A DNA stretch of 12,854 nucleotides from a virus (IMGVR_UViG_3300032331_003080:1-12854), one strand, 5' to 3'. Counted from the stretch's first letter, positions 2,279 through 11,505 are shown. Made by a program: numbers and translations. The notes: generated from the letters alone by a model not told the origin.

Positions 2279-2631
2279 TTTTGACTGTCTCCCGGTAACA
2301 CACGATAGTTGTCTTCTACTGAGTCCGGGGTCGACACTTCAATGATAGTGCCCTCTTCTAAACATATCAGTTGATGCGGTTGCAATGGTCTATTTCTCCA
2401 GGTAGTGCCCGGTTTAAGTATTGCATCATGCTGGCTGGCATCATTGGTTTCAATGAATACTACCTTGAACAAACCATCCAATACATACCATGATTCATCC
2501 TTCTCAGCATGGAAGTGCATGCTGAATCGAGCACCGGTATTGAATTTCATAAGTTTGCCACAGTACTTGTCGTTAGTGGCCCAAATCAATTCACTACCCC
2601 ATCCCTTTTCTACATATCCTTCTAATCTCAT
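2275..2631 (-). CDS. cupin-fold protein, type II phosphomannose-isomerase-like
   Basis: KGWGSELIWATNDKYCGKLMKFNTGARFSMHFHAEKDESWYVLDG fits the PMI/GMP type II cupin pattern (WG..E.....YxxK.l.v..G..lS.q.H..r.E.w.V..G). ATGA overlaps on both sides. Confidence 0.75.
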   Translation of the reverse strand: MRLEGYVEKGWGSELIWATNDKYCGKLMKFNTGARFSMHFHAEKDESWYVLDGLFKVVFIETNDASQHDAILKPGTTWRNRPLQPHQLICLEEGTIIEVSTPDSVEDNYRVLPGDSQK

Positions 2632-3386
2632 CGGATTTCCTCTAACGCAGGTGCATACACACCAAAGTGTTGTACAGTGACCGCACTGGCTCGGATTGCA
2701 AATTCTATTGCAGATTTCATACGTTTGGTCACCAGGTATTGATAGGCCAGTGCTGCCAAAAACGTGTCTCCGGCACCGGTCACATCTGAAACTTCTACGG
2801 TAACACCTGGATATTGATGTTCTGCACCATCTGAATAGTATACAGCACCATCACCGCCTTGTGTCACGATCAAATCAGTACAGCCACTGGTGATACGACT
2901 GTGTTCAAGTGCATTGATTTTTACAATGCATCTATCTAGTCTTGCTAGATCAGTTTTTTTGGTATCCACAAATACAGGACCAGAAAAATTCTGTTGTATT
3001 TGTTCTAGAACTTCATAGGTCACTGTGCCTTTGTTGTAGTCGCTCACAACCACGGCATCATACTCCTCAAAGATTTCGTTGAATACTACAGCAGGCTCAG
3101 ATTCAGCATCTGCGTCTATTCGCACTATGTGTTGTTTGCTACGCTGATCAATCAGTCTTGTTTTTACAGATGTATTACCGGTAATAACACCAACTGCACA
3201 GCCTAATCGTTCAAGGTTGGCTCTAACATTGGCAGCCATGCCGTGACGTTGTTCTTCATGGCTGACTTGGAAAATAGGAACAGGTGCTTCGGGACTGAGT
3301 CGATCCACTGTGCCGTAACGGTATATGTCCAGGCAGGTGTCACCGATTACTAATACTTTGAATTTTTTCTGTGGTTGAGAATCCAT
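2628..3386 (-). CDS. hldA: D-glycero-beta-D-manno-heptose-7-phosphate kinase-like (PfkB family; HldE domain I-like)
   Basis: KVLVIGDTCLDIY..G.VDRLSPEAPVPIF is the HldE/RfaE kinase-domain N-terminus. DVTGAGDTF is the PfkB signature. Shorter (252 aa) than the E. coli kinase domain. Confidence 0.82.
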   Translation of the reverse strand: MDSQPQKKFKVLVIGDTCLDIYRYGTVDRLSPEAPVPIFQVSHEEQRHGMAANVRANLERLGCAVGVITGNTSVKTRLIDQRSKQHIVRIDADAESEPAVVFNEIFEEYDAVVVSDYNKGTVTYEVLEQIQQNFSGPVFVDTKKTDLARLDRCIVKINALEHSRITSGCTDLIVTQGGDGAVYYSDGAEHQYPGVTVEVSDVTGAGDTFLAALAYQYLVTKRMKSAIEFAIRASAVTVQHFGVYAPALEEIR

Positions 3387-3732
3387 CTATTCTTTCAAAA
3401 AATACAATGCTTGAGCAAACTTCTGATCCCACAATAGCACGATCGCGATAGTCTGATCCTTTGACCATTATAGCACATTCTGCAACGATGTCAACAAGTT
3501 CCAGATCAGAATCAAATATCCTAACCTCATCTACCGAGCGTAGATTACTCAAGAGTTCTTGCCGTTCTGCTTGTGTATTTACAGGACGGCTCACGCCCTT
3601 CAATTCTTTTACTCGTCGATCAGAGTCAATGGCAACCACAAGATGGTCTCCTAGACTCCTGGCATACGTCAACAATTCTAGGTGTCCGGAATGTAAGATA
3701 TCAAATGTGCCGTTGACTATGATTCGTTTCAT
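3340..3732 (-). CDS. hldC: D-glycero-beta-D-manno-heptose-1-phosphate adenylyltransferase-like (HldE domain II-like cytidylyltransferase fold)
   Basis: NGTFDILHSGHLELLTYARSLGDHLVVAIDSDRRVKELKGVSRPVN...VKGSDY...GFSTTEKI parallels E. coli HldE domain II [46 protein letters not shown]...VKGGDY...GCSTTNII (recalled). The HxGH motif is present. Confidence 0.85.
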   Translation of the reverse strand: MKRIIVNGTFDILHSGHLELLTYARSLGDHLVVAIDSDRRVKELKGVSRPVNTQAERQELLSNLRSVDEVRIFDSDLELVDIVAECAIMVKGSDYRDRAIVGSEVCSSIVFFERIDGFSTTEKIQSISNR

Positions 3733-3860: not shown

Positions 3861-4309
3861 TATAGTGCCTCCAACTTTTGTTTGTAAAGATTTGCGTGAT
3901 GTTGCTCTACTCGTTGTAGTGCGGCAAAACGCTTTTCTGCTTTGGCCAACACAGCTCGGAACTGTTCAGCATGTTCGCGGCTTTCGTCAATTTGGTGCTG
4001 TGCTTCTCGAATAGCAGCCTCGTTGCCTTCGTTGTGCGCGGCGTTTTTCATGCGTGGATACATGTAAGTGAACTCTTCAGTTTCGCCCTCAATGGCTTTT
4101 TCCAAACATTCTCGAGTGGTTGGCTTGCCAACAAGCAATTCCAAATGTCCCCAGGCATGTTTGAGTTCTTGATCTGCTGTGTGTTCAAAGTGTTGGGCAA
4201 CATCTTCGTAACCTTCTTCGCGAGCAATACGTGCGAAGTAACGATATTTGATGTGAGCTTGTGACTCCCCAGCAAGTGCGCTTTCTAAATTTTTAATTGT
4301 AATTGACAT
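3860..4309 (-). CDS. rubrerythrin-type diiron (ferritin-like) protein lacking the fused rubredoxin domain
   Basis: LAGESQAHIKYRYF, EHTADQELKHA, IEGETEEFTYMYP and ESREHAEQF give two E...ExxH diiron motifs typical of rubrerythrin. AAGGAG lies 5 nt upstream of ATG 4309. Confidence 0.85.
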   Translation of the reverse strand: MSITIKNLESALAGESQAHIKYRYFARIAREEGYEDVAQHFEHTADQELKHAWGHLELLVGKPTTRECLEKAIEGETEEFTYMYPRMKNAAHNEGNEAAIREAQHQIDESREHAEQFRAVLAKAEKRFAALQRVEQHHANLYKQKLEAL

Positions 4310-4333
4310 ACATTCTCCTTATTAAGTAGTACT

Positions 4334-4363
4334 ATTATATATTATAGTAACAGCCTAAGTCAA
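4334..4363 (-). promoter_or_regulatory. sigma70-type promoter P3: TTGACT-18 nt-TATAAT
   Basis: -35 TTGACT at 4363..4358, -10 TATAAT at 4339..4334. A second TATAAT at 4346..4341 is too close to the -35. The leader AGTACTACTTAATAAGGAGAATGT runs to ATG 4309. Confidence 0.55.
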
Positions 4364-4408
4364 CGGGTTTTACCATTGTATTTTTTAATGATAGTAATAG
4401 ATTTTGCC

Positions 4409-4488
4409 TGGTACCCCTGCTTGGATTCGAACCAAGACCATGTACTCCCTTTTGAGGAGAGTGACTTTACCAATTTGTCTACAGGGGC
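4409..4488 (-). tRNA. tRNA with anticodon CAA (Leu by anticodon), atypical short variable region, CCA encoded
   Basis: Hand fold: acceptor GCCCCTG/CAGGGGT (G1:U72 wobble), D-arm GAC/GTC, anticodon arm CTCTC-CTCAAAA-GGGAG, 8-nt variable region, T-arm CTTGG-TTCGAAT-CCAAG, discriminator A, CCA. Confidence 0.65.
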
Positions 4489-4657
4489 AATAAATATTGT
4501 ATGAAGAACGATCCAGGATCAGTAGCACCGTTGTATAGAGAATTTTCTACAGAGCCCTATGAACCCCAGGTTCACGCTACCACTTGTTGTGTATTTACAT
4601 TAGATCCGTTGTTTATTGCCGCAGATTTAAAATTTCAACTTACTCCGTTATTGAACG

Positions 4658-4912
4658 TTAATCATCCCGAGATACTTGCCGTTCTCTGACCTTCATTCCA
4701 AACCAAGTGCCAACAAATGCACCTGCCAGGGCCGGGATCAAGGCCCAATGGTCAGCAGTATAATTGATAACTGCTATACTAGCAGTAAATGTCACAACCA
4801 TGCTCCAAAAGCTGGCGTGCCAGGGTCTATCATTCTGAATCGATTTTACAAAATACACGTAAATCAAATCAGTAAAGAATACTGCAAAAAATGTTACTGT
4901 GTATTCTAACAT
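4658..4912 (-). CDS. small membrane protein, about 3 predicted TM segments with charged C-terminus
   Basis: Hydrophobic stretches YTVTFFAVFFTDLIYVYFV, FWSMVVTFTASIAVINY and WALIPALAGAFVGTWFG. Tail is KVRERQVSRDD. Start is directly adjacent to the upstream stop (TAAATG). Confidence 0.6.
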   Translation of the reverse strand: MLEYTVTFFAVFFTDLIYVYFVKSIQNDRPWHASFWSMVVTFTASIAVINYTADHWALIPALAGAFVGTWFGMKVRERQVSRDD

Positions 4913-5143
4913 TTATTTTTTCTTTTCCAGTGGGGGTTCTTTGGTCTTGTCAAGTTCATGTGGCTCGGCAAATCTAGATTGGTTTCCCCAGGCTGCCCAA
5001 CTATCCTCAGTAAACAGTCGCACAGGTTTCCAAAAACGTACAATAATATTGTTAACCACAACAATACCGATTACAATCGAAATCAATGCTATCATTGTCA
5101 AAATGCTACCAGCTAGAAACGTTGCGGCGTGATCCATATCCAT
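4913..5143 (-). CDS. small single-pass membrane protein (76 aa)
   Basis: One TM segment (FLAGSILTMIALISIVIGIVVVNNIIV) and a Lys-rich C-terminus. AAGGAA lies 7 nt upstream of ATG 5143. Immediately downstream of tRNA-fMet. Confidence 0.6.
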   Translation of the reverse strand: MDMDHAATFLAGSILTMIALISIVIGIVVVNNIIVRFWKPVRLFTEDSWAAWGNQSRFAEPHELDKTKEPPLEKKK

Positions 5144-5164
5144 GAGTGTGTTCCTTATATGAGT

Positions 5165-5239
5165 TGGTTGCGGGGGAAGGATTCGAACCTCCGTCTTTCG
5201 GGTTATGAGCCCGATAGTCTACCACTGACGTACCCCGCG
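5165..5239 (-). tRNA. initiator tRNA-fMet (anticodon CAU), CCA encoded
   Basis: Sequence CGCGGGG...TCGGGCTCATAACCCGA...CCCCGCAACCA. It has the C1xA72 mismatch and three consecutive G:C pairs closing the anticodon stem, as in E. coli tRNA-fMet (recalled). T-arm GGAGG-TTCGAAT-CCTTC. Confidence 0.85.
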
Positions 5240-5243
5240 TTGT

Positions 5244-5272
5244 ATTATAACTTATTTACAGCTGATTGTCAA
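5244..5272 (-). promoter_or_regulatory. sigma70-type promoter P4 (class B, perfect consensus): TTGACA-17 nt-TATAAT
   Basis: -35 at 5272..5267, -10 at 5249..5244. The tRNA-fMet 5' end (5239) is the 5th nt after the -10. The TAA stop of the upstream CDS (5258..5256) lies inside the spacer. Confidence 0.72.
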
Positions 5273-5966
5273 TGTTTTCTAAAACATAGTCAGCAAATGC
5301 TTGATGTGCTGGTTCAAAAAAATGTCCCCAATCAGTATGGGGAAACTTTTGTTCTAAGCACCATTCGCAAAATTTAGTAGTACCAATTGGCCAATATCCA
5401 ACGTCGATAGTGCCTGGTATGCCCGCAAAACTATCAATGTTTATGATTTTTATATTTTGATTTTTTGCCAACATATTAACTGCAAGAATGTTTTTGAGTT
5501 TGTTTAATCTACCGCGCTGACCATCGCTTTCGTATGTAATCCAATATTTAGAAAAGTCAGCGTATGCATCAGCATCGGATATCATGCCACCAAGACGCTG
5601 TCCTTCTAGCATGACATGATTGCGAGTCACATTATTTAAAACAACATTTCCGTGAGTTACTGCCAACCAACGTTGTTGTTTTTCATACCATATTTCGGTT
5701 CTAGAATCGCCAGTCCAACAAGCAATCACAATGTCATCTTGATCTAGTTTTTGGCTTTCAAATATTCTAAACATAGCATCATTACTGCCTCCAGATATGG
5801 CGTGATTGCGGACTTCATATCCTAGGGCTTGTGCTATTTTAACTGGATAACTTTTGGTATATCCATACTCTTCTAAATTTTGTGATGATGGTAAATTCAA
5901 GCCTGGCTCTTTGTATATTTCGGCACCAGCCGCATGACTACACCCTAATATCAATGCTTTTTTCAT
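5256..5966 (-). CDS. SGNH/GDSL-like hydrolase-fold protein (putative)
   Basis: N-terminal LILGCSHAAG (block I-like, Ser present), ISGGSNDAMF (block III GxND-like), C-terminal EPAHQAF (His block). Distant paralog of 9342..10118. Confidence 0.6.
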   Translation of the reverse strand: MKKALILGCSHAAGAEIYKEPGLNLPSSQNLEEYGYTKSYPVKIAQALGYEVRNHAISGGSNDAMFRIFESQKLDQDDIVIACWTGDSRTEIWYEKQQRWLAVTHGNVVLNNVTRNHVMLEGQRLGGMISDADAYADFSKYWITYESDGQRGRLNKLKNILAVNMLAKNQNIKIINIDSFAGIPGTIDVGYWPIGTTKFCEWCLEQKFPHTDWGHFFEPAHQAFADYVLENIDNQL

Positions 5967-5971
5967 AATTT

Positions 5972-6060
5972 TGGCGGAAAGTATAGGAATCGAACCTATG
6001 CACCGTTATTCACAGTGATGGATTAGCAATCCATTGCCTTAACCACTCGGCCAACTTTCC
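5972..6060 (-). tRNA. tRNA-Ser (anticodon GCU), class II with long variable arm, CCA encoded
   Basis: Hand fold: GGAAAGT/ACTTTCC acceptor, ATGGA-TTGCTAA-TCCAT anticodon arm, variable arm CACTG-TGAATAA-CGGTG, T-arm ATAGG-TTCGATT-CCTAT, discriminator G. Confidence 0.9.
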
Positions 6061-6098
6061 TTTGTTTTCCAGTGTTAGATATTTAACTAAGTATTTTT

Positions 6099-6989
6099 AT
6101 GGTGCCAATATTCTTATTAACTTACAATGAACAGGATTCTTTTGTAGAAATTTACAACGACCAATTTGTACGAACTCACTTCGGCCCCAACAACATACAT
6201 TTTTATGTGTTAGACAATGGCAAGCAACCAAAAATCGAATCTTGGTGTCAACGCCACGGATACACATACTATGCCAGTGAATACAACATTGGCAGTTCGG
6301 GTGGCTACAATTGGATTTTTAAAACAGCATTTCGACTTAGGTTACAAGCGGCTGTATTAATGCAGGCCGATGTTGAAATTACGTCGGCCTGGCCGCTTTT
6401 GTTTACCTATCAACTTACTAGAGCGTTTGGAACGACACATTTTATTACTTGGCCACAAACTTTTCATCACAGTGATTATAGTGCAGAAATATCTTATCAT
6501 GATCTTAAATCAAATTTACCAAATTTAGGAAACCTTGTGGGATTTGATCCGATTATGATGTACCACAAAAATTGTTATTTTGATGAAAATTACGTGGTCA
6601 CACACTGTGATGATTTAGAATTTTTGTATCATATGCGTACTAAAAATATGAATGCTGTCAATGCAATTTCGCTATTGCCTGGTGCAGTAGAAACAGCTCA
6701 ACGATTTGTATTGCCTGGCACCGAAACTCGAACTCATTCACACGTGATAACATTTAATAATGAAGAAATAAGAATACATCATGTCAGCCAATTTTATGAA
6801 AGTCATGATCCTTGGTTAGCAGTTAACAAACCTTATTACGATCTTATGTGGGAACAATCACAATGCCAAACAAGAGCACCGTACGATCCTGCTCGGTGGC
6901 AACAGTTTGGATACCCTGCTTATCCAGTGCAACACGAACTTGATCGGTTTTTTAAACAATATCCAAAATTAACACATGGAGCGGAATAG
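6099..6989 (+). CDS. glycosyltransferase family 2-like protein
   Basis: This is the only convincing plus-strand gene. VPIFLLTYNE (GT2 N-terminal xxTYN motif), VLDNGKQ, YNIGSSGGYNWIFKTA (N.G.aGG.N block), QADVE (DxD-like). No SD upstream. The last 13 nt overlap tRNA-Gly on the opposite strand. Confidence 0.65.
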   Translation: MVPIFLLTYNEQDSFVEIYNDQFVRTHFGPNNIHFYVLDNGKQPKIESWCQRHGYTYYASEYNIGSSGGYNWIFKTAFRLRLQAAVLMQADVEITSAWPLLFTYQLTRAFGTTHFITWPQTFHHSDYSAEISYHDLKSNLPNLGNLVGFDPIMMYHKNCYFDENYVVTHCDDLEFLYHMRTKNMNAVNAISLLPGAVETAQRFVLPGTETRTHSHVITFNNEEIRIHHVSQFYESHDPWLAVNKPYYDLMWEQSQCQTRAPYDPARWQQFGYPAYPVQHELDRFFKQYPKLTHGAE

Positions 6990-7050
6990 CGGAATCGAAC
7001 CGCTGACTTGAACTTGGAAGGATCTCGTTTTACCATTAAACTAATTCCGC
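6977..7050 (-). tRNA. tRNA-Gly (anticodon UCC), CCA encoded, imperfect anticodon stem
   Basis: GCGGAAT/ATTCCGC acceptor, D-arm GTTT-AATGGTA-AAAC, anticodon loop CTTCCAA, T-arm AGCGG-TTCGATT-CCGCT, discriminator U (Gly-like). The AGATC/GTTCA anticodon stem has AxA and UxU mismatches. Confidence 0.72.
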
Positions 7051-7052
7051 AT

Positions 7053-7361
7053 TTAAATTGTTTGCTTTTTAAATTCTTCCTCGGCTTTTTTGTGCAAGAC
7101 AAACCATCTATTATGAATTAAATTAGCATATTCATAATTGTAATCTAATTGTGCATAATCTATTAATTGTTTATACAAATTCTCACTCAAAGTAGGCGCA
7201 TAAAGTTCAACCAAATCAATTAAAATTCCGTTGATACTATTTGCTAGTGTTGTTACCTCAGCAAATCTCTGTTCACAAAGGTTAATAAACACTTGTTCGT
7301 TCACACCATTGAAGTCTGGATTGATTTTTTTTATATAACAAACTTGGTAAAAATTTATCAC
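7053..7361 (-). CDS. C-terminal portion of a frameshift-interrupted hypothetical gene
   Basis: ORF track 102 aa. The nominal start is GTG 7361 with a weak SD. It overlaps the upstream ORF only around the A8 run (7332..7325). See the frameshift finding. Confidence 0.5.
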   Translation of the reverse strand: MINFYQVCYIKKINPDFNGVNEQVFINLCEQRFAEVTTLANSINGILIDLVELYAPTLSENLYKQLIDYAQLDYNYEYANLIHNRWFVLHKKAEEEFKKQTI

Positions 7362-7656
7362 TACTTTCTATAAAAATATTTAATTCATTAAATTGAGCTA
7401 ATTTGTTTTGCCATTCAAAATCATGATCTGGGTGCATGAACATTATAAATCTTTTTAAATCATCTCTCCATATCCATTCATAATCCAACCAATTTGAATG
7501 TGTTCTTTTGAGTGGGTATATACTATTAAGAATATAATTTACTTTGTCTGTAATAGATTGAAAATTAAAAAAATTAAATTTTTCATCTATTAATAATAAC
7601 CATCTTAAGTGATTACCGCCGGCTCCCCAAGGAGCCCAAATTGTTAAATTACTCAT
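7282..7656 (-). CDS. N-terminal portion of a frameshift-interrupted hypothetical gene
   Basis: ATG 7656 with GGAG 5 nt upstream. Very AT-rich. The frame ends 14 codons after the A8 run. No family recognised. Confidence 0.6.
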   Translation of the reverse strand: MSNLTIWAPWGAGGNHLRWLLLIDEKFNFFNFQSITDKVNYILNSIYPLKRTHSNWLDYEWIWRDDLKRFIMFMHPDHDFEWQNKLAQFNELNIFIESSDKFLPSLLYKKNQSRLQWCERTSVY

Positions 7657-7691
7657 CTATGCTCCGAAAAACTTGGCGGTCCCAGGAAGAA

Positions 7692-8432
7692 TTAAACTCC
7701 CGCCGTGAAAGGGCGGCGTCCTGCCCAATATGTGGTTTTTAACCAAGTTTGGTAAATGTGGTCAGCCATGGCTTGATGCTGGATCAAATTTGGTTCAATC
7801 CCGTTCAAGATACCATCACGATCCTGCACACTTGCATATTGTTCTCTAGCCAAGGTCCATTTAGGATCTTCGTCCATAGCCCATTCACGGGCTTTGTCTG
7901 CATCCATCTCTATATGAAACTGCATGGCCAGATGTGGCCCGATAGCAAATGCTTGGTTAGCACAAGCGGCTGAACCAGCCAGGCGTGTGGCACCAGTGGG
8001 TATACTAAAAGTGTCGTAGTGCCACTGTATCACGGTAGAGGTAGGTGCGGAACCAAACCACTGTTGTGTTTCAGGAACATCCTCATATTCAATGGGTTGC
8101 CAACCTATTTCAGGTTGCGGTGATATTCCGATTGTGGCACCTAGTGCTCGAGCCATCAATTGCCCACCCAAACAATGTCCTATGACCGGACGATCCAATC
8201 GCATGGCTTGTAGTATTAAAATTTCTGCTTGGCGATTACTCAGCAAGGGATCATTAGCACTCATGCCACCACCCATCACAGCCAAGGCTGAGTAAGGTTC
8301 TATGCTGACAGGAAACTGTTGCCACAACCCTGCATTGCGTGTCTCATGCGGAATATCGTGTTGGCCCAACCAGGTCACAAGGTATGCAGGACGCTCGGGT
8401 GTTTGGTGTTGTAGTATTAAAACAGGTTTCAT
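7692..8432 (-). CDS. class I glutamine amidotransferase (GuaA-GATase-like stand-alone domain)
   Basis: VIGHCLGGQLMA (nucleophile-elbow Cys) and LAMQFHIEMD (His-Glu) match the GATase1 triad. Visibly higher GC than its neighbours. No SD before ATG 8432. Confidence 0.82.
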   Translation of the reverse strand: MKPVLILQHQTPERPAYLVTWLGQHDIPHETRNAGLWQQFPVSIEPYSALAVMGGGMSANDPLLSNRQAEILILQAMRLDRPVIGHCLGGQLMARALGATIGISPQPEIGWQPIEYEDVPETQQWFGSAPTSTVIQWHYDTFSIPTGATRLAGSAACANQAFAIGPHLAMQFHIEMDADKAREWAMDEDPKWTLAREQYASVQDRDGILNGIEPNLIQHQAMADHIYQTWLKTTYWAGRRPFTAGV

Positions 8433-8449
8433 TGGGATATTTAGTCAGT

Positions 8450-8469
8450 AGAAACCCGCCGAAGCGGGT
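8450..8469 (-). terminator. intrinsic terminator ending the ssrA transcript
   Basis: Minus strand ACCCGC-TTCG-GCGGGT followed by TTTCT. GC-rich stem with a UUCG tetraloop. Confidence 0.6.
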
Positions 8470-8512
8470 CCTGGTGATTTCTGTTACGAGGTATTTCCTA
8501 CCCTAGGCTACT

Positions 8513-8545
8513 TTACGCGGCCAATGCGAACTGTGAGTCGTTAGC
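8513..8545 (-). other. tmRNA tag reading frame: ANDSQFALAA + UAA
   Basis: GCT AAC GAC TCA CAG TTC GCA TTG GCC GCG TAA. The upstream context GCAAAAAAAGTAAAC resembles the E. coli GCAAAAAATAGTC context before the resume codon (recalled). An in-frame upstream GCA (8560) would give AKKVNANDSQFALAA. Confidence 0.7.
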
Positions 8546-8724
8546 GTTTACTTTTTTTGCTTGATTAACGGTCATCGCCTACCGTGTTGCCGTCGCTACT
8601 ATCTAGCTCAATCGATCCTGTGTCATCCCCACCTAAATATACTGTATACACTTAGGTGGAGATGCCGGGCACTGCCCCCGGGTCTTGAACTCCTTCGTTT
8701 TGAAGGGATTACAACAATATTTGT

Positions 8725-8753
8725 ATTATATATTTATTTGATCAACTTGTCAA
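8725..8753 (-). promoter_or_regulatory. sigma70-type promoter P5 (class B, perfect consensus): TTGACA-17 nt-TATAAT, drives ssrA
   Basis: -35 at 8753..8748, which contains the TGA stop of the upstream small CDS. -10 at 8730..8725. Predicted start near A8718. Confidence 0.75.
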
Positions 8754-8917
8754 CCACCACGTCCGGTAACCTTGCGCATGGGCTTACCACCAGGTGAGGG
8801 TGGTGCTTTGCGTTTGGCCGCTTTCTGTTGTGTCTTGCTTAGTTTGGCATCAGGTTGATGTATGCCTTGCTTTTTTGCAAGTGCCTCTTTTATCTCTTCT
8901 GTAAAGTTTTTGCTCAT
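8750..8917 (-). CDS. small basic protein, 55 aa
   Basis: ORF track 8750..8965 trimmed to ATG 8917, which has AGGAG 6 nt upstream. The longer form would overlap the tRNA at 8932..9007. Sequence: MSKNFTEEIKEALAKKQGIHQPDAKLSKTQQKAAKRKAPPSPGGKPMRKVTGRGG. Confidence 0.55.
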   Translation of the reverse strand: MSKNFTEEIKEALAKKQGIHQPDAKLSKTQQKAAKRKAPPSPGGKPMRKVTGRGG

Positions 8918-8931
8918 CGCGTACTCCTGGT

Positions 8932-9007
8932 TGGTGCCTTGGGAGGGAATCGACCCCCCAGTCAAAGGATTATGAGTCCTCTGCTTTGACCGTTAAGCTA
9001 CCAAGGC
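8932..9007 (-). tRNA. tRNA with anticodon CAU (elongator Met or Ile2/lysidine type), CCA encoded
   Basis: GCCTTGG/CCAAGGC acceptor, D-arm GCTT-AACGGTCA-AAGC, anticodon arm GAGGA-CTCATAA-TCCTT, T-arm GGGGG-GTCGATT-CCCTC (G instead of U at position 54), discriminator A. Confidence 0.8.
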
Positions 9008-9015
9008 CCATGTGT

Positions 9016-9044
9016 ATTATATAGTAATATTGTTGCTATGTCAA
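9016..9044 (-). promoter_or_regulatory. sigma70-type promoter P6 (class B, perfect consensus): TTGACA-17 nt-TATAAT
   Basis: -35 at 9044..9039, which contains the TGA stop of CDS 9041..9349. -10 at 9021..9016. The tRNA 5' end (9007) is the 9th nt after the -10. Confidence 0.75.
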
Positions 9045-9349
9045 GCGATTAACCACGTAGTACTACGTTTTAATTCAATGCTTTCTTTTCCATCGTATTC
9101 AGTGATGCGAAACTCTTCACCCTGTGGCACCCACTCAACTATTAGGTGTGGTAATGCGCCTAAAAAGATAGTGGGATATTTGAGTCGGATGTAGATTTCT
9201 AATTTTTCCATTTGCTCAGATTCAACATACTCCACAATAACAGGATCAAATACCAATTCGGGATATTTAGTATTCCAGGTATACCAGCCTGCACCAAACT
9301 CTGGGCTGTACACCACACCTACCTTGCCATCTTGTATTAGTTTATTCAT
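9041..9349 (-). CDS. hypothetical protein, 102 aa
   Basis: Clean ORF with an 8-nt overlap (ATGAATAA) with the upstream gene. No family recognised. Confidence 0.7.
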   Translation of the reverse strand: MNKLIQDGKVGVVYSPEFGAGWYTWNTKYPELVFDPVIVEYVESEQMEKLEIYIRLKYPTIFLGALPHLIVEWVPQGEEFRITEYDGKESIELKRSTTWLIA

Positions 9350-11148: not shown

Positions 11149-11470
11149 CCTTTTTGACCCGTATATCTGTGTTCAAAACAGGTGTATACTTTTGTATTAA
11201 TTCCCGCTCCAATTTGTGTGCCTGGGCTTTGCCACGTACAATGTCCACGATTGCAAAATTCACAGCCCGCTCGCCGTTTGTGCGAATTGCTTCGTACAAG
11301 TTCCAACTCTTGCTTTCAGTGCGACTGCGGTAGATGTGCTTGTTAACACGGCTCTGCAGGCTCATGTTAATAGTACGCTGGGTTTTAGCGGTAATACCAA
11401 TGTAGTACTCTTCCCCAATTTGGAGCATGTATACTATATGAGTGCGATCTGAACGTTTCTTTCTTATCAT
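11138..11470 (-). CDS. GIY-YIG nuclease catalytic domain only (110 aa); candidate leaderless mRNA
   Basis: [17 protein letters not shown] (GIY...YIG), R...H (RVNKH), [20 protein letters not shown] (conserved Glu and Asn) resemble the I-TevI/Seg catalytic domain. The only start upstream of the first beta-strand is ATG 11470, 7 nt after the P9 -10. Confidence 0.72.
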
Positions 11471-11476
11471 GTGTGT

Positions 11477-11505
11477 ATTATAGCATTTTGGGCATTTTTG
11501 GTCAA
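11477..11505 (-). promoter_or_regulatory. sigma70-type promoter P9 (class A): TTGACC-17 nt-TGcTATAAT
   Basis: -35 at 11505..11500, -10 at 11482..11477. Downstream sequence is ACACAC then ATG. Confidence 0.7.

Follow-up and report, generated by a model that had tools for sequence, protein, structure and literature searches.

Two-piece transfer-messenger RNAs (tmRNAs) of phages, and tmRNAs in huge phages, are already known (PMC9004378, PMC7162821). They are found in aquatic phages such as the OM43 phage Melnitz, 53 two-piece tmRNAs have been counted among INPHARED genomes, and phage two-piece tmRNAs standing behind early promoters have been described (PMC9004378). Huge phages carry transfer RNAs (tRNAs), tmRNA, SmpB and initiation factors, which have been read as supporting or redirecting translation in the host (Al-Shayeb et al. 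2020, PMC7162821). Here we analysed the 12,854-bp viral contig IMGVR_UViG_3300032331_003080 of the IMG/VR database (the window, meaning the whole contig), in which an initiator tRNA, a second tRNA with the anticodon CAU and a tmRNA each stand behind a perfect consensus promoter. A preliminary description had taken these for private promoters with almost no 5' leader, and had seen in them the control of both translation initiation and ribosome rescue. Its observation was confirmed in part, the sequence facts being largely right, and its interpretation was supported in part. We consider it rather probable that the stable-RNA genes are compact cassettes at the 5' ends of consensus-promoter units, mostly a matter of ordinary phage gene packing, which supply codon-matched translation RNAs.

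The window represents about 4% of a complete genome (CheckV), and its relatives at the protein level include contigs of 320-347 kb (about 345 kb) that are 93-100% complete. Because relatives reach this size and completeness, the window appears to be a fragment of a freshwater jumbo phage known solely from metagenomes. When positions 4300-9100 were compared with 50,697 phage records by Megablast and blastn, no relative was found and all matches were of tRNA size only, which leaves the region without a close cultured phage among these records. As in the huge phages (PMC7162821), a large phage here carries many tRNAs and a tmRNA. In contrast to them, none of five relatives that are 93-100% complete encodes SmpB or TilS, and therefore the RNAs of this family should work through host partners. 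With the phage two-piece tmRNAs (PMC9004378) and the bacterial ones of Rfam family RF01850, the tmRNA of the window shares the permuted order, the G3.U70 pair, a tag ending in LAA and a gene that immediately follows an early or consensus promoter. Unlike those systems, it has a non-canonical T-loop (GGCAGUG, 8665-8681), which is identical in all 18 distinct relatives aligned; it encodes no CCA, only ACC followed by U (8654-8657); and the Rfam scan of the window detected no glutamine riboswitch.

The placing of the promoters can be compared with that in E. coli ileX, whose TATAAT lies 10 nucleotides (nt) before the mature 5' end; in the metT operon the -10 lies about 40 nt upstream. The ileX gene has the same geometry as the CAU tRNA of the window, and in both cases the tRNA is promoter-proximal in a unit that continues into protein genes. 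Mixed tRNA-mRNA operons, such as metY-nusA-infB and the tufB operon, are familiar in E. coli. The discriminators of ileX and metT are G+C-rich, whereas those of the phage stable-RNA promoters are A+T-rich (ACA...), and the phage units are far more compact. By what is established on stringent control, A+T-rich discriminators would make the phage promoters insensitive to guanosine tetraphosphate (ppGpp) and DksA. In Nanoarchaeum equitans, tRNA transcription is said, from work by Randau and colleagues in 2008, to be leaderless (see PMC10100707); promoters are similarly placed there, and transcription begins at or next to tRNA nucleotide 1. The system differs in being archaeal and without ribonuclease P (RNase P), whereas the phage leaders are predicted to be 1-4 nt rather than 0 nt long, and most tRNAs of the phage family, together with the coding piece of the tmRNA, would need RNase P. 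Phage T4 (L180) encodes tRNA-Ile(CAU), annotated as Ile, and tRNA-Gly(UCC) among its eight tRNAs. Like the window, it has a small tRNA set enriched for readers of codons that end in A or U or are rare in the host. The T4 tRNAs are clustered, and they are processed from long precursors; the tRNAs of the window are singly scattered, each standing behind or between small open reading frames (ORFs).

Promoters were scored as matches to the sigma-70 hexamers TTGACA/TATAAT, with E. coli standing in for a host whose rules may differ. The scan of the window found four perfect (12/12) matches and seven at 11/12, all on the minus strand, which is also the strand of every convincing gene of the window. 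The means of 300 first-order Markov resamples were 0.013 perfect matches and 0.52 matches at 11/12 or better, against the observed 4 and 11. Because these counts far exceed the resamples, the promoter sites are under selection. Three of the perfect promoters, at 9044..9016, 8753..8725 and 5272..5244, had been named in the preliminary description and were recovered by the scan. All three read TTGACA-17-TATAAT-ACA, and the -10 is separated by 8 nt from both the CAU tRNA and the first paired base of the tmRNA and by 4 nt from the initiator tRNA, so that mature nucleotide 1 is the 9th nt after the -10 in the CAU tRNA and the 5th in the initiator, as had been stated. The claim that the window has three perfect promoters, all driving stable RNAs, does not hold, since a fourth (3494..3467), which has a 16-nt spacer and a TG ahead of its -10, precedes the protein ORF 2628-3386. 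This fourth promoter and the seven near-perfect ones drive protein genes. We propose that the window would be an early-type region, in which nearly every small transcription unit is headed by a consensus promoter for the host housekeeping RNA polymerase, and that the stable-RNA genes would be lodged at the extreme 5' ends of such units.

The gene of the initiator tRNA (5165..5239, minus strand) lies between the promoter 5272..5244 and two hydrophobic ORFs of 76 amino acids (aa) (4913-5143) and 84 aa (4658-4912), the first beginning 21 nt after the tRNA and the second following it behind the same promoter. In the metagenome contig L176, which matches the window colinearly over 6966-4403 with about 90-92% identity, the promoter and the 76-aa gene are present, and a clean gap of about 75 nt (a cassette of 75-76 nt) falls precisely at the initiator tRNA. 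In L001 (the same contig as L056, and matched by the metagenome contig L177), the promoter region 5290-5239 is retained with 94% identity and is fused directly to a homologue of 5165-4331. The alignment runs from the -10 through 3 bases into the 5' untranslated region (UTR) and ATG of the 76-aa gene, and the tRNA is absent. In the remoter relatives L090/L070 and L008, the promoter is followed by 12-14 nt, a tRNA-Gly(UCC), 11-13 nt and the ATG of the 76-aa homologue. Thus the slot between the promoter and the 76-aa gene holds Gly, fMet or nothing, depending on the relative. The promoter demonstrably belongs to the protein operon, and the tRNA is a presence/absence cassette in some strains. Because the promoter is present without the tRNA in L176 and L001/L177, it is not dedicated to the tRNA, and the word "private" does not suit the CAU tRNA either, which has an ORF beginning 14 nt after it. 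The promoter overlaps the stop codon of a 236-aa ORF (5256-5966). Upstream of the shared promoter, L001 carries a different gene, a 397-aa ORF (L001:7246-8439) with an SGGxDS (PP-loop-like) motif and no Pfam match, whose place the 236-aa ORF holds in the window.

The tRNA in this slot appears to be a bacterial-type initiator, as had been described. ARAGORN found it, Rfam scored it at 63 bits, and the Rfam alignment shows C1xA72, flagged as non-standard for want of a Watson-Crick 1:72 pair; the three G:C pairs G29-31:C39-41 of the anticodon stem with the anticodon CAU; G11:C24 (purine11:pyrimidine24); the formylation determinants G2:C71 and C3:G70; and A73. The first D-stem pair is mismatched and CCA is encoded. 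We take its anticodon arm to be equal to that of the E. coli initiator, and formylation, binding of initiation factor 2 and use of the P site are predicted. The preliminary description considered a phage-encoded initiator less expected. However, the same initiator family occurs in at least 29 related contigs, and dozens of unrelated viral contigs carry other initiators, so phage initiator tRNAs are already known and common. In most relatives the initiator sits 7-8 nt after another tRNA, an unusual tRNA-Ser(ACU), often with a promoter 8-10 nt upstream; copies in this position would therefore need RNase P. The tRNA-Ser(ACU) is of class II, with A34 and a usually strong promoter 8-10 nt upstream (L063:6075-6164, L064:5532-5621, L072:1351-1440 and L078:5239-5328).

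The spacing between promoter and tRNA was surveyed across the family in 561 distinct tRNA contexts from related loci, a promoter being counted when it matched at least 10/12 within 40 nt. Such a promoter was present in 49 contexts. The distance from the -10 to tRNA nucleotide 1 peaked at 8-10 nt, 27 of the 49 lying at 7-10 nt, and leaders of 1-4 nt are therefore predicted for promoter-proximal tRNAs. The class to which the second CAU tRNA of the window belongs, quite probably tRNA-Ile2, had a promoter in 12 of 20 contexts, compared with 37 of 541 for other tRNA genes. An RNA polymerase of the E. coli type usually begins transcription at the 7th or 8th nt beyond the -10, with a preference for a purine that follows a pyrimidine. 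By this rule the primary transcript of the CAU tRNA (8932..9007, minus strand; CCA encoded; promoter 9016..9044) is predicted to carry a leader of 1-2 nt. A promoter 8-10 nt before this tRNA was also found in L001, L002, L040, L061, L007, L008, L050 and L051. The promoter is shared with a 55-aa ORF (8750..8917, minus strand), the one 14 nt behind the tRNA, which has a Shine-Dalgarno sequence and a stop codon inside the -35 of the tmRNA promoter. Homologues of this ORF occur in L001, L040, L051 and L028, and the L028 copy has the promoter without a tRNA. The CAU tRNA, reading the heavily used AUA as tRNA-Ile2, would thus be co-transcribed with the 55-aa ORF, with a spacing conserved in the family. 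Such short leaders are not confined to phages: besides the ileX geometry given above, the transcript of E. coli valU starts 9 nt upstream of the mature end (PMC4176162).

The initiator does not follow this pattern. In the window the 5th nt after the -10 is C1 of the tRNA, the 6th is G2, and the 7th and 8th are C3 and G4. Because the 7th and 8th nt lie inside the tRNA, transcripts from 5272..5244 should lack one to three 5' nucleotides of the initiator, with predicted starts at nt 2-4. The 4-nt spacing is unique among the 21 distinct initiator contexts of the family. Where initiators of viral contigs have a TATAAT within 20 nt and also a good -35, the distance is 10-17 nt, and only one other 4-nt case, a weak one, was found (L162). 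The claim of little or no leader is supported for the CAU tRNA and the tmRNA, whose very short predicted leaders are conserved in relatives, but not for the initiator. We think it likelier that its 4-nt spacing follows from where the cassette sits than that it was designed to be leaderless. The initiator would fill a tRNA slot of variable content, bounded by the promoter and the 5' UTR of the 76-aa/84-aa gene pair, and the promoter would probably yield 5'-truncated copies of it, while the full-length tRNA would come from read-through and RNase P, or from atypical starts. That a terminator-like hairpin at 5343..5325, within the 236-aa ORF, might stop read-through was an idea we set aside, terminator-like matches being at chance level (13 versus 10.5).

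The tmRNA was recognised by Rfam at 8449-8767 as beta_tmRNA (RF01850, 156.1 bits, threshold 84) and as tmRNA_permuted (RF04321, 136.9 bits, threshold 47). From the Rfam alignments and the sequence, the two-piece, circularly permuted RNA of beta type spans 8449..8718 on the minus strand, behind its promoter 8725..8753. It consists of an acceptor piece (about 8718-8655; T-arm 8681-8665, 3' acceptor strand 8664-8658, then ACC), an intervening hairpin (8654-8631), a coding piece from 8630 (5' acceptor strand 8630-8624, tag 8545-8516, stop 8515-8513) and a terminal hairpin (8470-8451). The T-arm and 3' acceptor strand thus lie upstream of the 5' acceptor strand and the tag frame, which is the permuted order. 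The acceptor helix, GGGGAUG / CAUCUCC, contains G3.U70 for alanine identity, and the tag with its stop (ANDSQFALAA, 8545-8513) is a canonical degradation tag; those of relatives end in AA, for example ANDEQFALAA in L014 and L032. ARAGORN reported a permuted tmRNA with an identical tag for the homologue in L176. In many of the 18 distinct relatives, the conserved 5' end of the tmRNA is preceded at 6-7 nt by a -10 hexamer, and the first (5') helix covaries between two allele types among them. A different allele of this helix, with compensating changes in the 3' partner, is found in the sister contigs L001 and L176, where an insertion of 3.7-5.3 kb separates the 55-aa ORF from the tmRNA (L001:1517-5286 and L176:608-5917).

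The Rfam beta_tmRNA consensus was built from bacteria. Because it includes the same promoter hexamers at the same place, the promoter layout is a family trait of beta-type permuted tmRNA genes and not a phage trait. Of the three RNAs, the tmRNA alone, with its own promoter and terminal hairpin, gives the impression of a closed unit. Its acceptor piece can begin at a plain transcript start, because in a permuted tmRNA this 5' end is not tRNA-like. The coding piece would still need an RNase P-type cut inside the precursor, and the RNA would need host SmpB. When a conserved motif of this tmRNA family was searched against 185,579 species genomes, a single match was found, in L091 (JBDNIA010000294.1), a 20.6-kb contig of a metagenome-assembled genome of Crocinitomicaceae. 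We did not adopt Crocinitomicaceae as the host, because the promoters of the window are proteobacterial in type and L091 is probably a phage contig mis-binned with a Bacteroidota genome; it is kept as a possible host lead. From the tmRNA type we infer, tentatively, a betaproteobacterial host.

Several points weigh against the reading of the stable RNAs given above, and some of them concern the CAU tRNA. The acceptor-stem determinants for type I TilS lie at 4:69 and 5:68 in E. coli and are G3:C70 and C4:G69 in B. cenocepacia (PMC11947777). The CAU tRNA of the window has C3:G70, U4:A69 and U5:A68 and is thus without the E. coli or Burkholderia determinants, which vary by species and may be others in the host. 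Its overall identity is a tie, 62% to ileX and 63% to metT, and the T4 tRNA-Ile was no help either. By blastn the tRNA matched nothing in E. coli genomes, and in phages it gave four partial, uninformative matches. An elongator tRNA-Met would suit the pairs C3:G70 and U4:A69, which are also those of the E. coli elongator, the 63% identity to metT against 62% to ileX, and the ARAGORN label Met (the Rfam score was 68 bits); we hold this identity to be somewhat unlikely. The anticodon arm is like that of ileX and not of metT (A26, G27.U43, CUCAUAA loop, U44), and in the L051 and G002 copies it is identical to that of ileX. Among the 27 tRNAs of the complete 162-kb phage G002 are exactly two CAU species, one of this type and one with a U32/C38 loop that can serve as the Met tRNA. 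The promoter-proximal relatives in L007, L008 and L050 have G3:C70 and C4:G69, and AUA makes up 1.9% of phage codons. Because overall identity does not discriminate, we base the tRNA-Ile2 assignment on the anticodon arm and on the tRNA complement of complete phages, and lysidine modification and isoleucine charging are predicted from it. In the complete 177-kb phage G003, an odd CAU tRNA (L137:11101-11174) with U1:A72 and an initiator-like acceptor stem directly follows an Ile2-like tRNA. Suppressor-type tRNAs were seen in relatives as well, with UUA in G003 (L137:3602-3678) and with CUA in L028 (6473-6548), the latter having its own promoter 9 nt upstream.

The other points on this side concern the start sites and the initiator. 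What the sequences show is the anatomy, its conservation and the indel; the start sites, the Ile2 identity and the timing of expression are inferred. All start sites are predicted from the rules of E. coli RNA polymerase, which may not be those of the host. In the window strain, selection could act on the very presence of a perfect promoter immediately at the initiator. The indel may be a gain in the window or a loss in the sister strains, the latter being equally possible, and in L176 and L001/L177 the tRNA-less allele is of a single type, which does not make two independent events. Either direction would fit the outgroups, which carry another tRNA, and the 4-nt direct repeat, CAAC, that flanks the cassette. 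The tRNA-Gly in L008 has a 10-nt junction motif in common with the window, which likewise fits both. In a rival reading, the initiator would be a recent, near-neutral or even costly insertion at the start of the 76-aa operon and would not be efficiently expressed as a functional tRNA. Its unique 4-nt spacing, when well-formed promoters before phage initiators elsewhere lie 10-17 nt away, and the absence of the tRNA from the two closest promoter-sharing contigs would be explained in this way. We nevertheless regard a recent insertion of this kind as unlikely. It is an intact tRNA that has all the hallmarks of an initiator and encodes CCA, and it differs by only one base from the copies in relatives, where near-identical copies occupy other contexts. 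Remoter relatives also keep a tRNA in the slot, which makes loss in the sister strains just as possible.

The cassette reading also agrees with codon usage. In the ORFs of the window, AUA accounts for 32% of Ile codons, UUG for 31% of Leu codons (the commonest Leu codon), AGY for 60% of Ser codons and GGA for 25% of Gly codons. Supply of codons fits the tRNA set, because the Leu, Ser and Gly tRNAs read UUG, AGY and GGA, which are well used. The proposed control of initiation and rescue goes beyond the data, given this fit and the absence of SmpB and TilS from the five near-complete relatives. In that view, each translation RNA would have been given its own maximal promoter as part of a deliberate module, with primary transcripts close to mature and RNase P bypassed. 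All three perfect promoters with a 17-nt spacer do precede stable RNAs, the spacing of 8-10 nt is sharply kept for promoter-proximal tRNAs across the family, and in relatives the initiator is usually the second of a promoter-proximal tRNA pair, so that strong early expression is apparently favoured. However, the initiator promoter exists without a tRNA and serves protein genes, as do the fourth perfect promoter and the seven near-perfect ones; the coding piece of the tmRNA still requires an RNase P-type cut; complete relatives are without SmpB; and most tRNAs of the family lie in arrays that require RNase P. We therefore find such a module quite improbable. For the family as a whole, it is highly improbable that promoter-proximal tRNAs at 8-10 nt are near-leaderless, with the host polymerase starting at the mature end or 1-2 nt before it, possibly leaving a 5'-triphosphate and largely escaping RNase P, and with the window initiator starting at G2 without C1 and still initiating.

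The remaining stable RNAs of the window are tRNA-Leu(CAA) (4409..4488), tRNA-Ser(GCU) (5972..6060) and tRNA-Gly(UCC) (6977..7050). ARAGORN found all five tRNAs at the coordinates of the preliminary description, Rfam confirmed all five, and all are on the minus strand. As had been said, the Leu, Ser and Gly tRNAs have no promoter of their own, the scan having found none of at least 10/12 within about 100 nt. The tRNA-Ser(GCU) gene of L008 and L032 has a perfect promoter 9 nt upstream, unlike the copy in the window, where the 236-aa ORF begins 5 nt downstream of the tRNA. When 10 ORFs around the RNAs were compared with Pfam and PHROGs, the sole match was a class-I glutamine amidotransferase domain in the ORF 7692-8432. 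The only long plus-strand ORF (6099-6989, 296 aa) has no Pfam or PHROG match; it occupies the gap of about 900 nt that separates the Gly and Ser tRNA genes, and it overlaps the former at its 3' end. Among the 11/12 promoters, four form a nearly identical class, starting at 11505, 11148, 10733 and 443. In two of these four, an in-frame ATG lies exactly at the 7th nt after the -10 (promoter 11477-11505 with ATG 11468-11470, and promoter 415-443 with ATG 406-408). These genes are candidates for leaderless mRNAs and, if they prove to be such, the usual start at the 7th nt would be supported for the promoters of this phage.

In conclusion, our main result corrects an attractive over-reading: consensus early promoters occur throughout the region, and the perfect promoters of the stable RNAs belong to this general pattern. 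The RNAs themselves would supply codon-matched translation and sustain initiation and ribosome rescue during infection by way of host enzymes. Of modest interest are the exchangeable tRNA slot and the tight spacing of 8-10 nt between promoter and tRNA. The spacing implies leaders of a few nt and offers simple material on the minimum leader that RNase P needs in vivo. In this phage family, a tRNA gene acts as a tRNA-sized cassette that can be exchanged within one fixed slot, after a promoter and before a 5' UTR; in different relatives the slot is filled by Gly, by fMet or by nothing.

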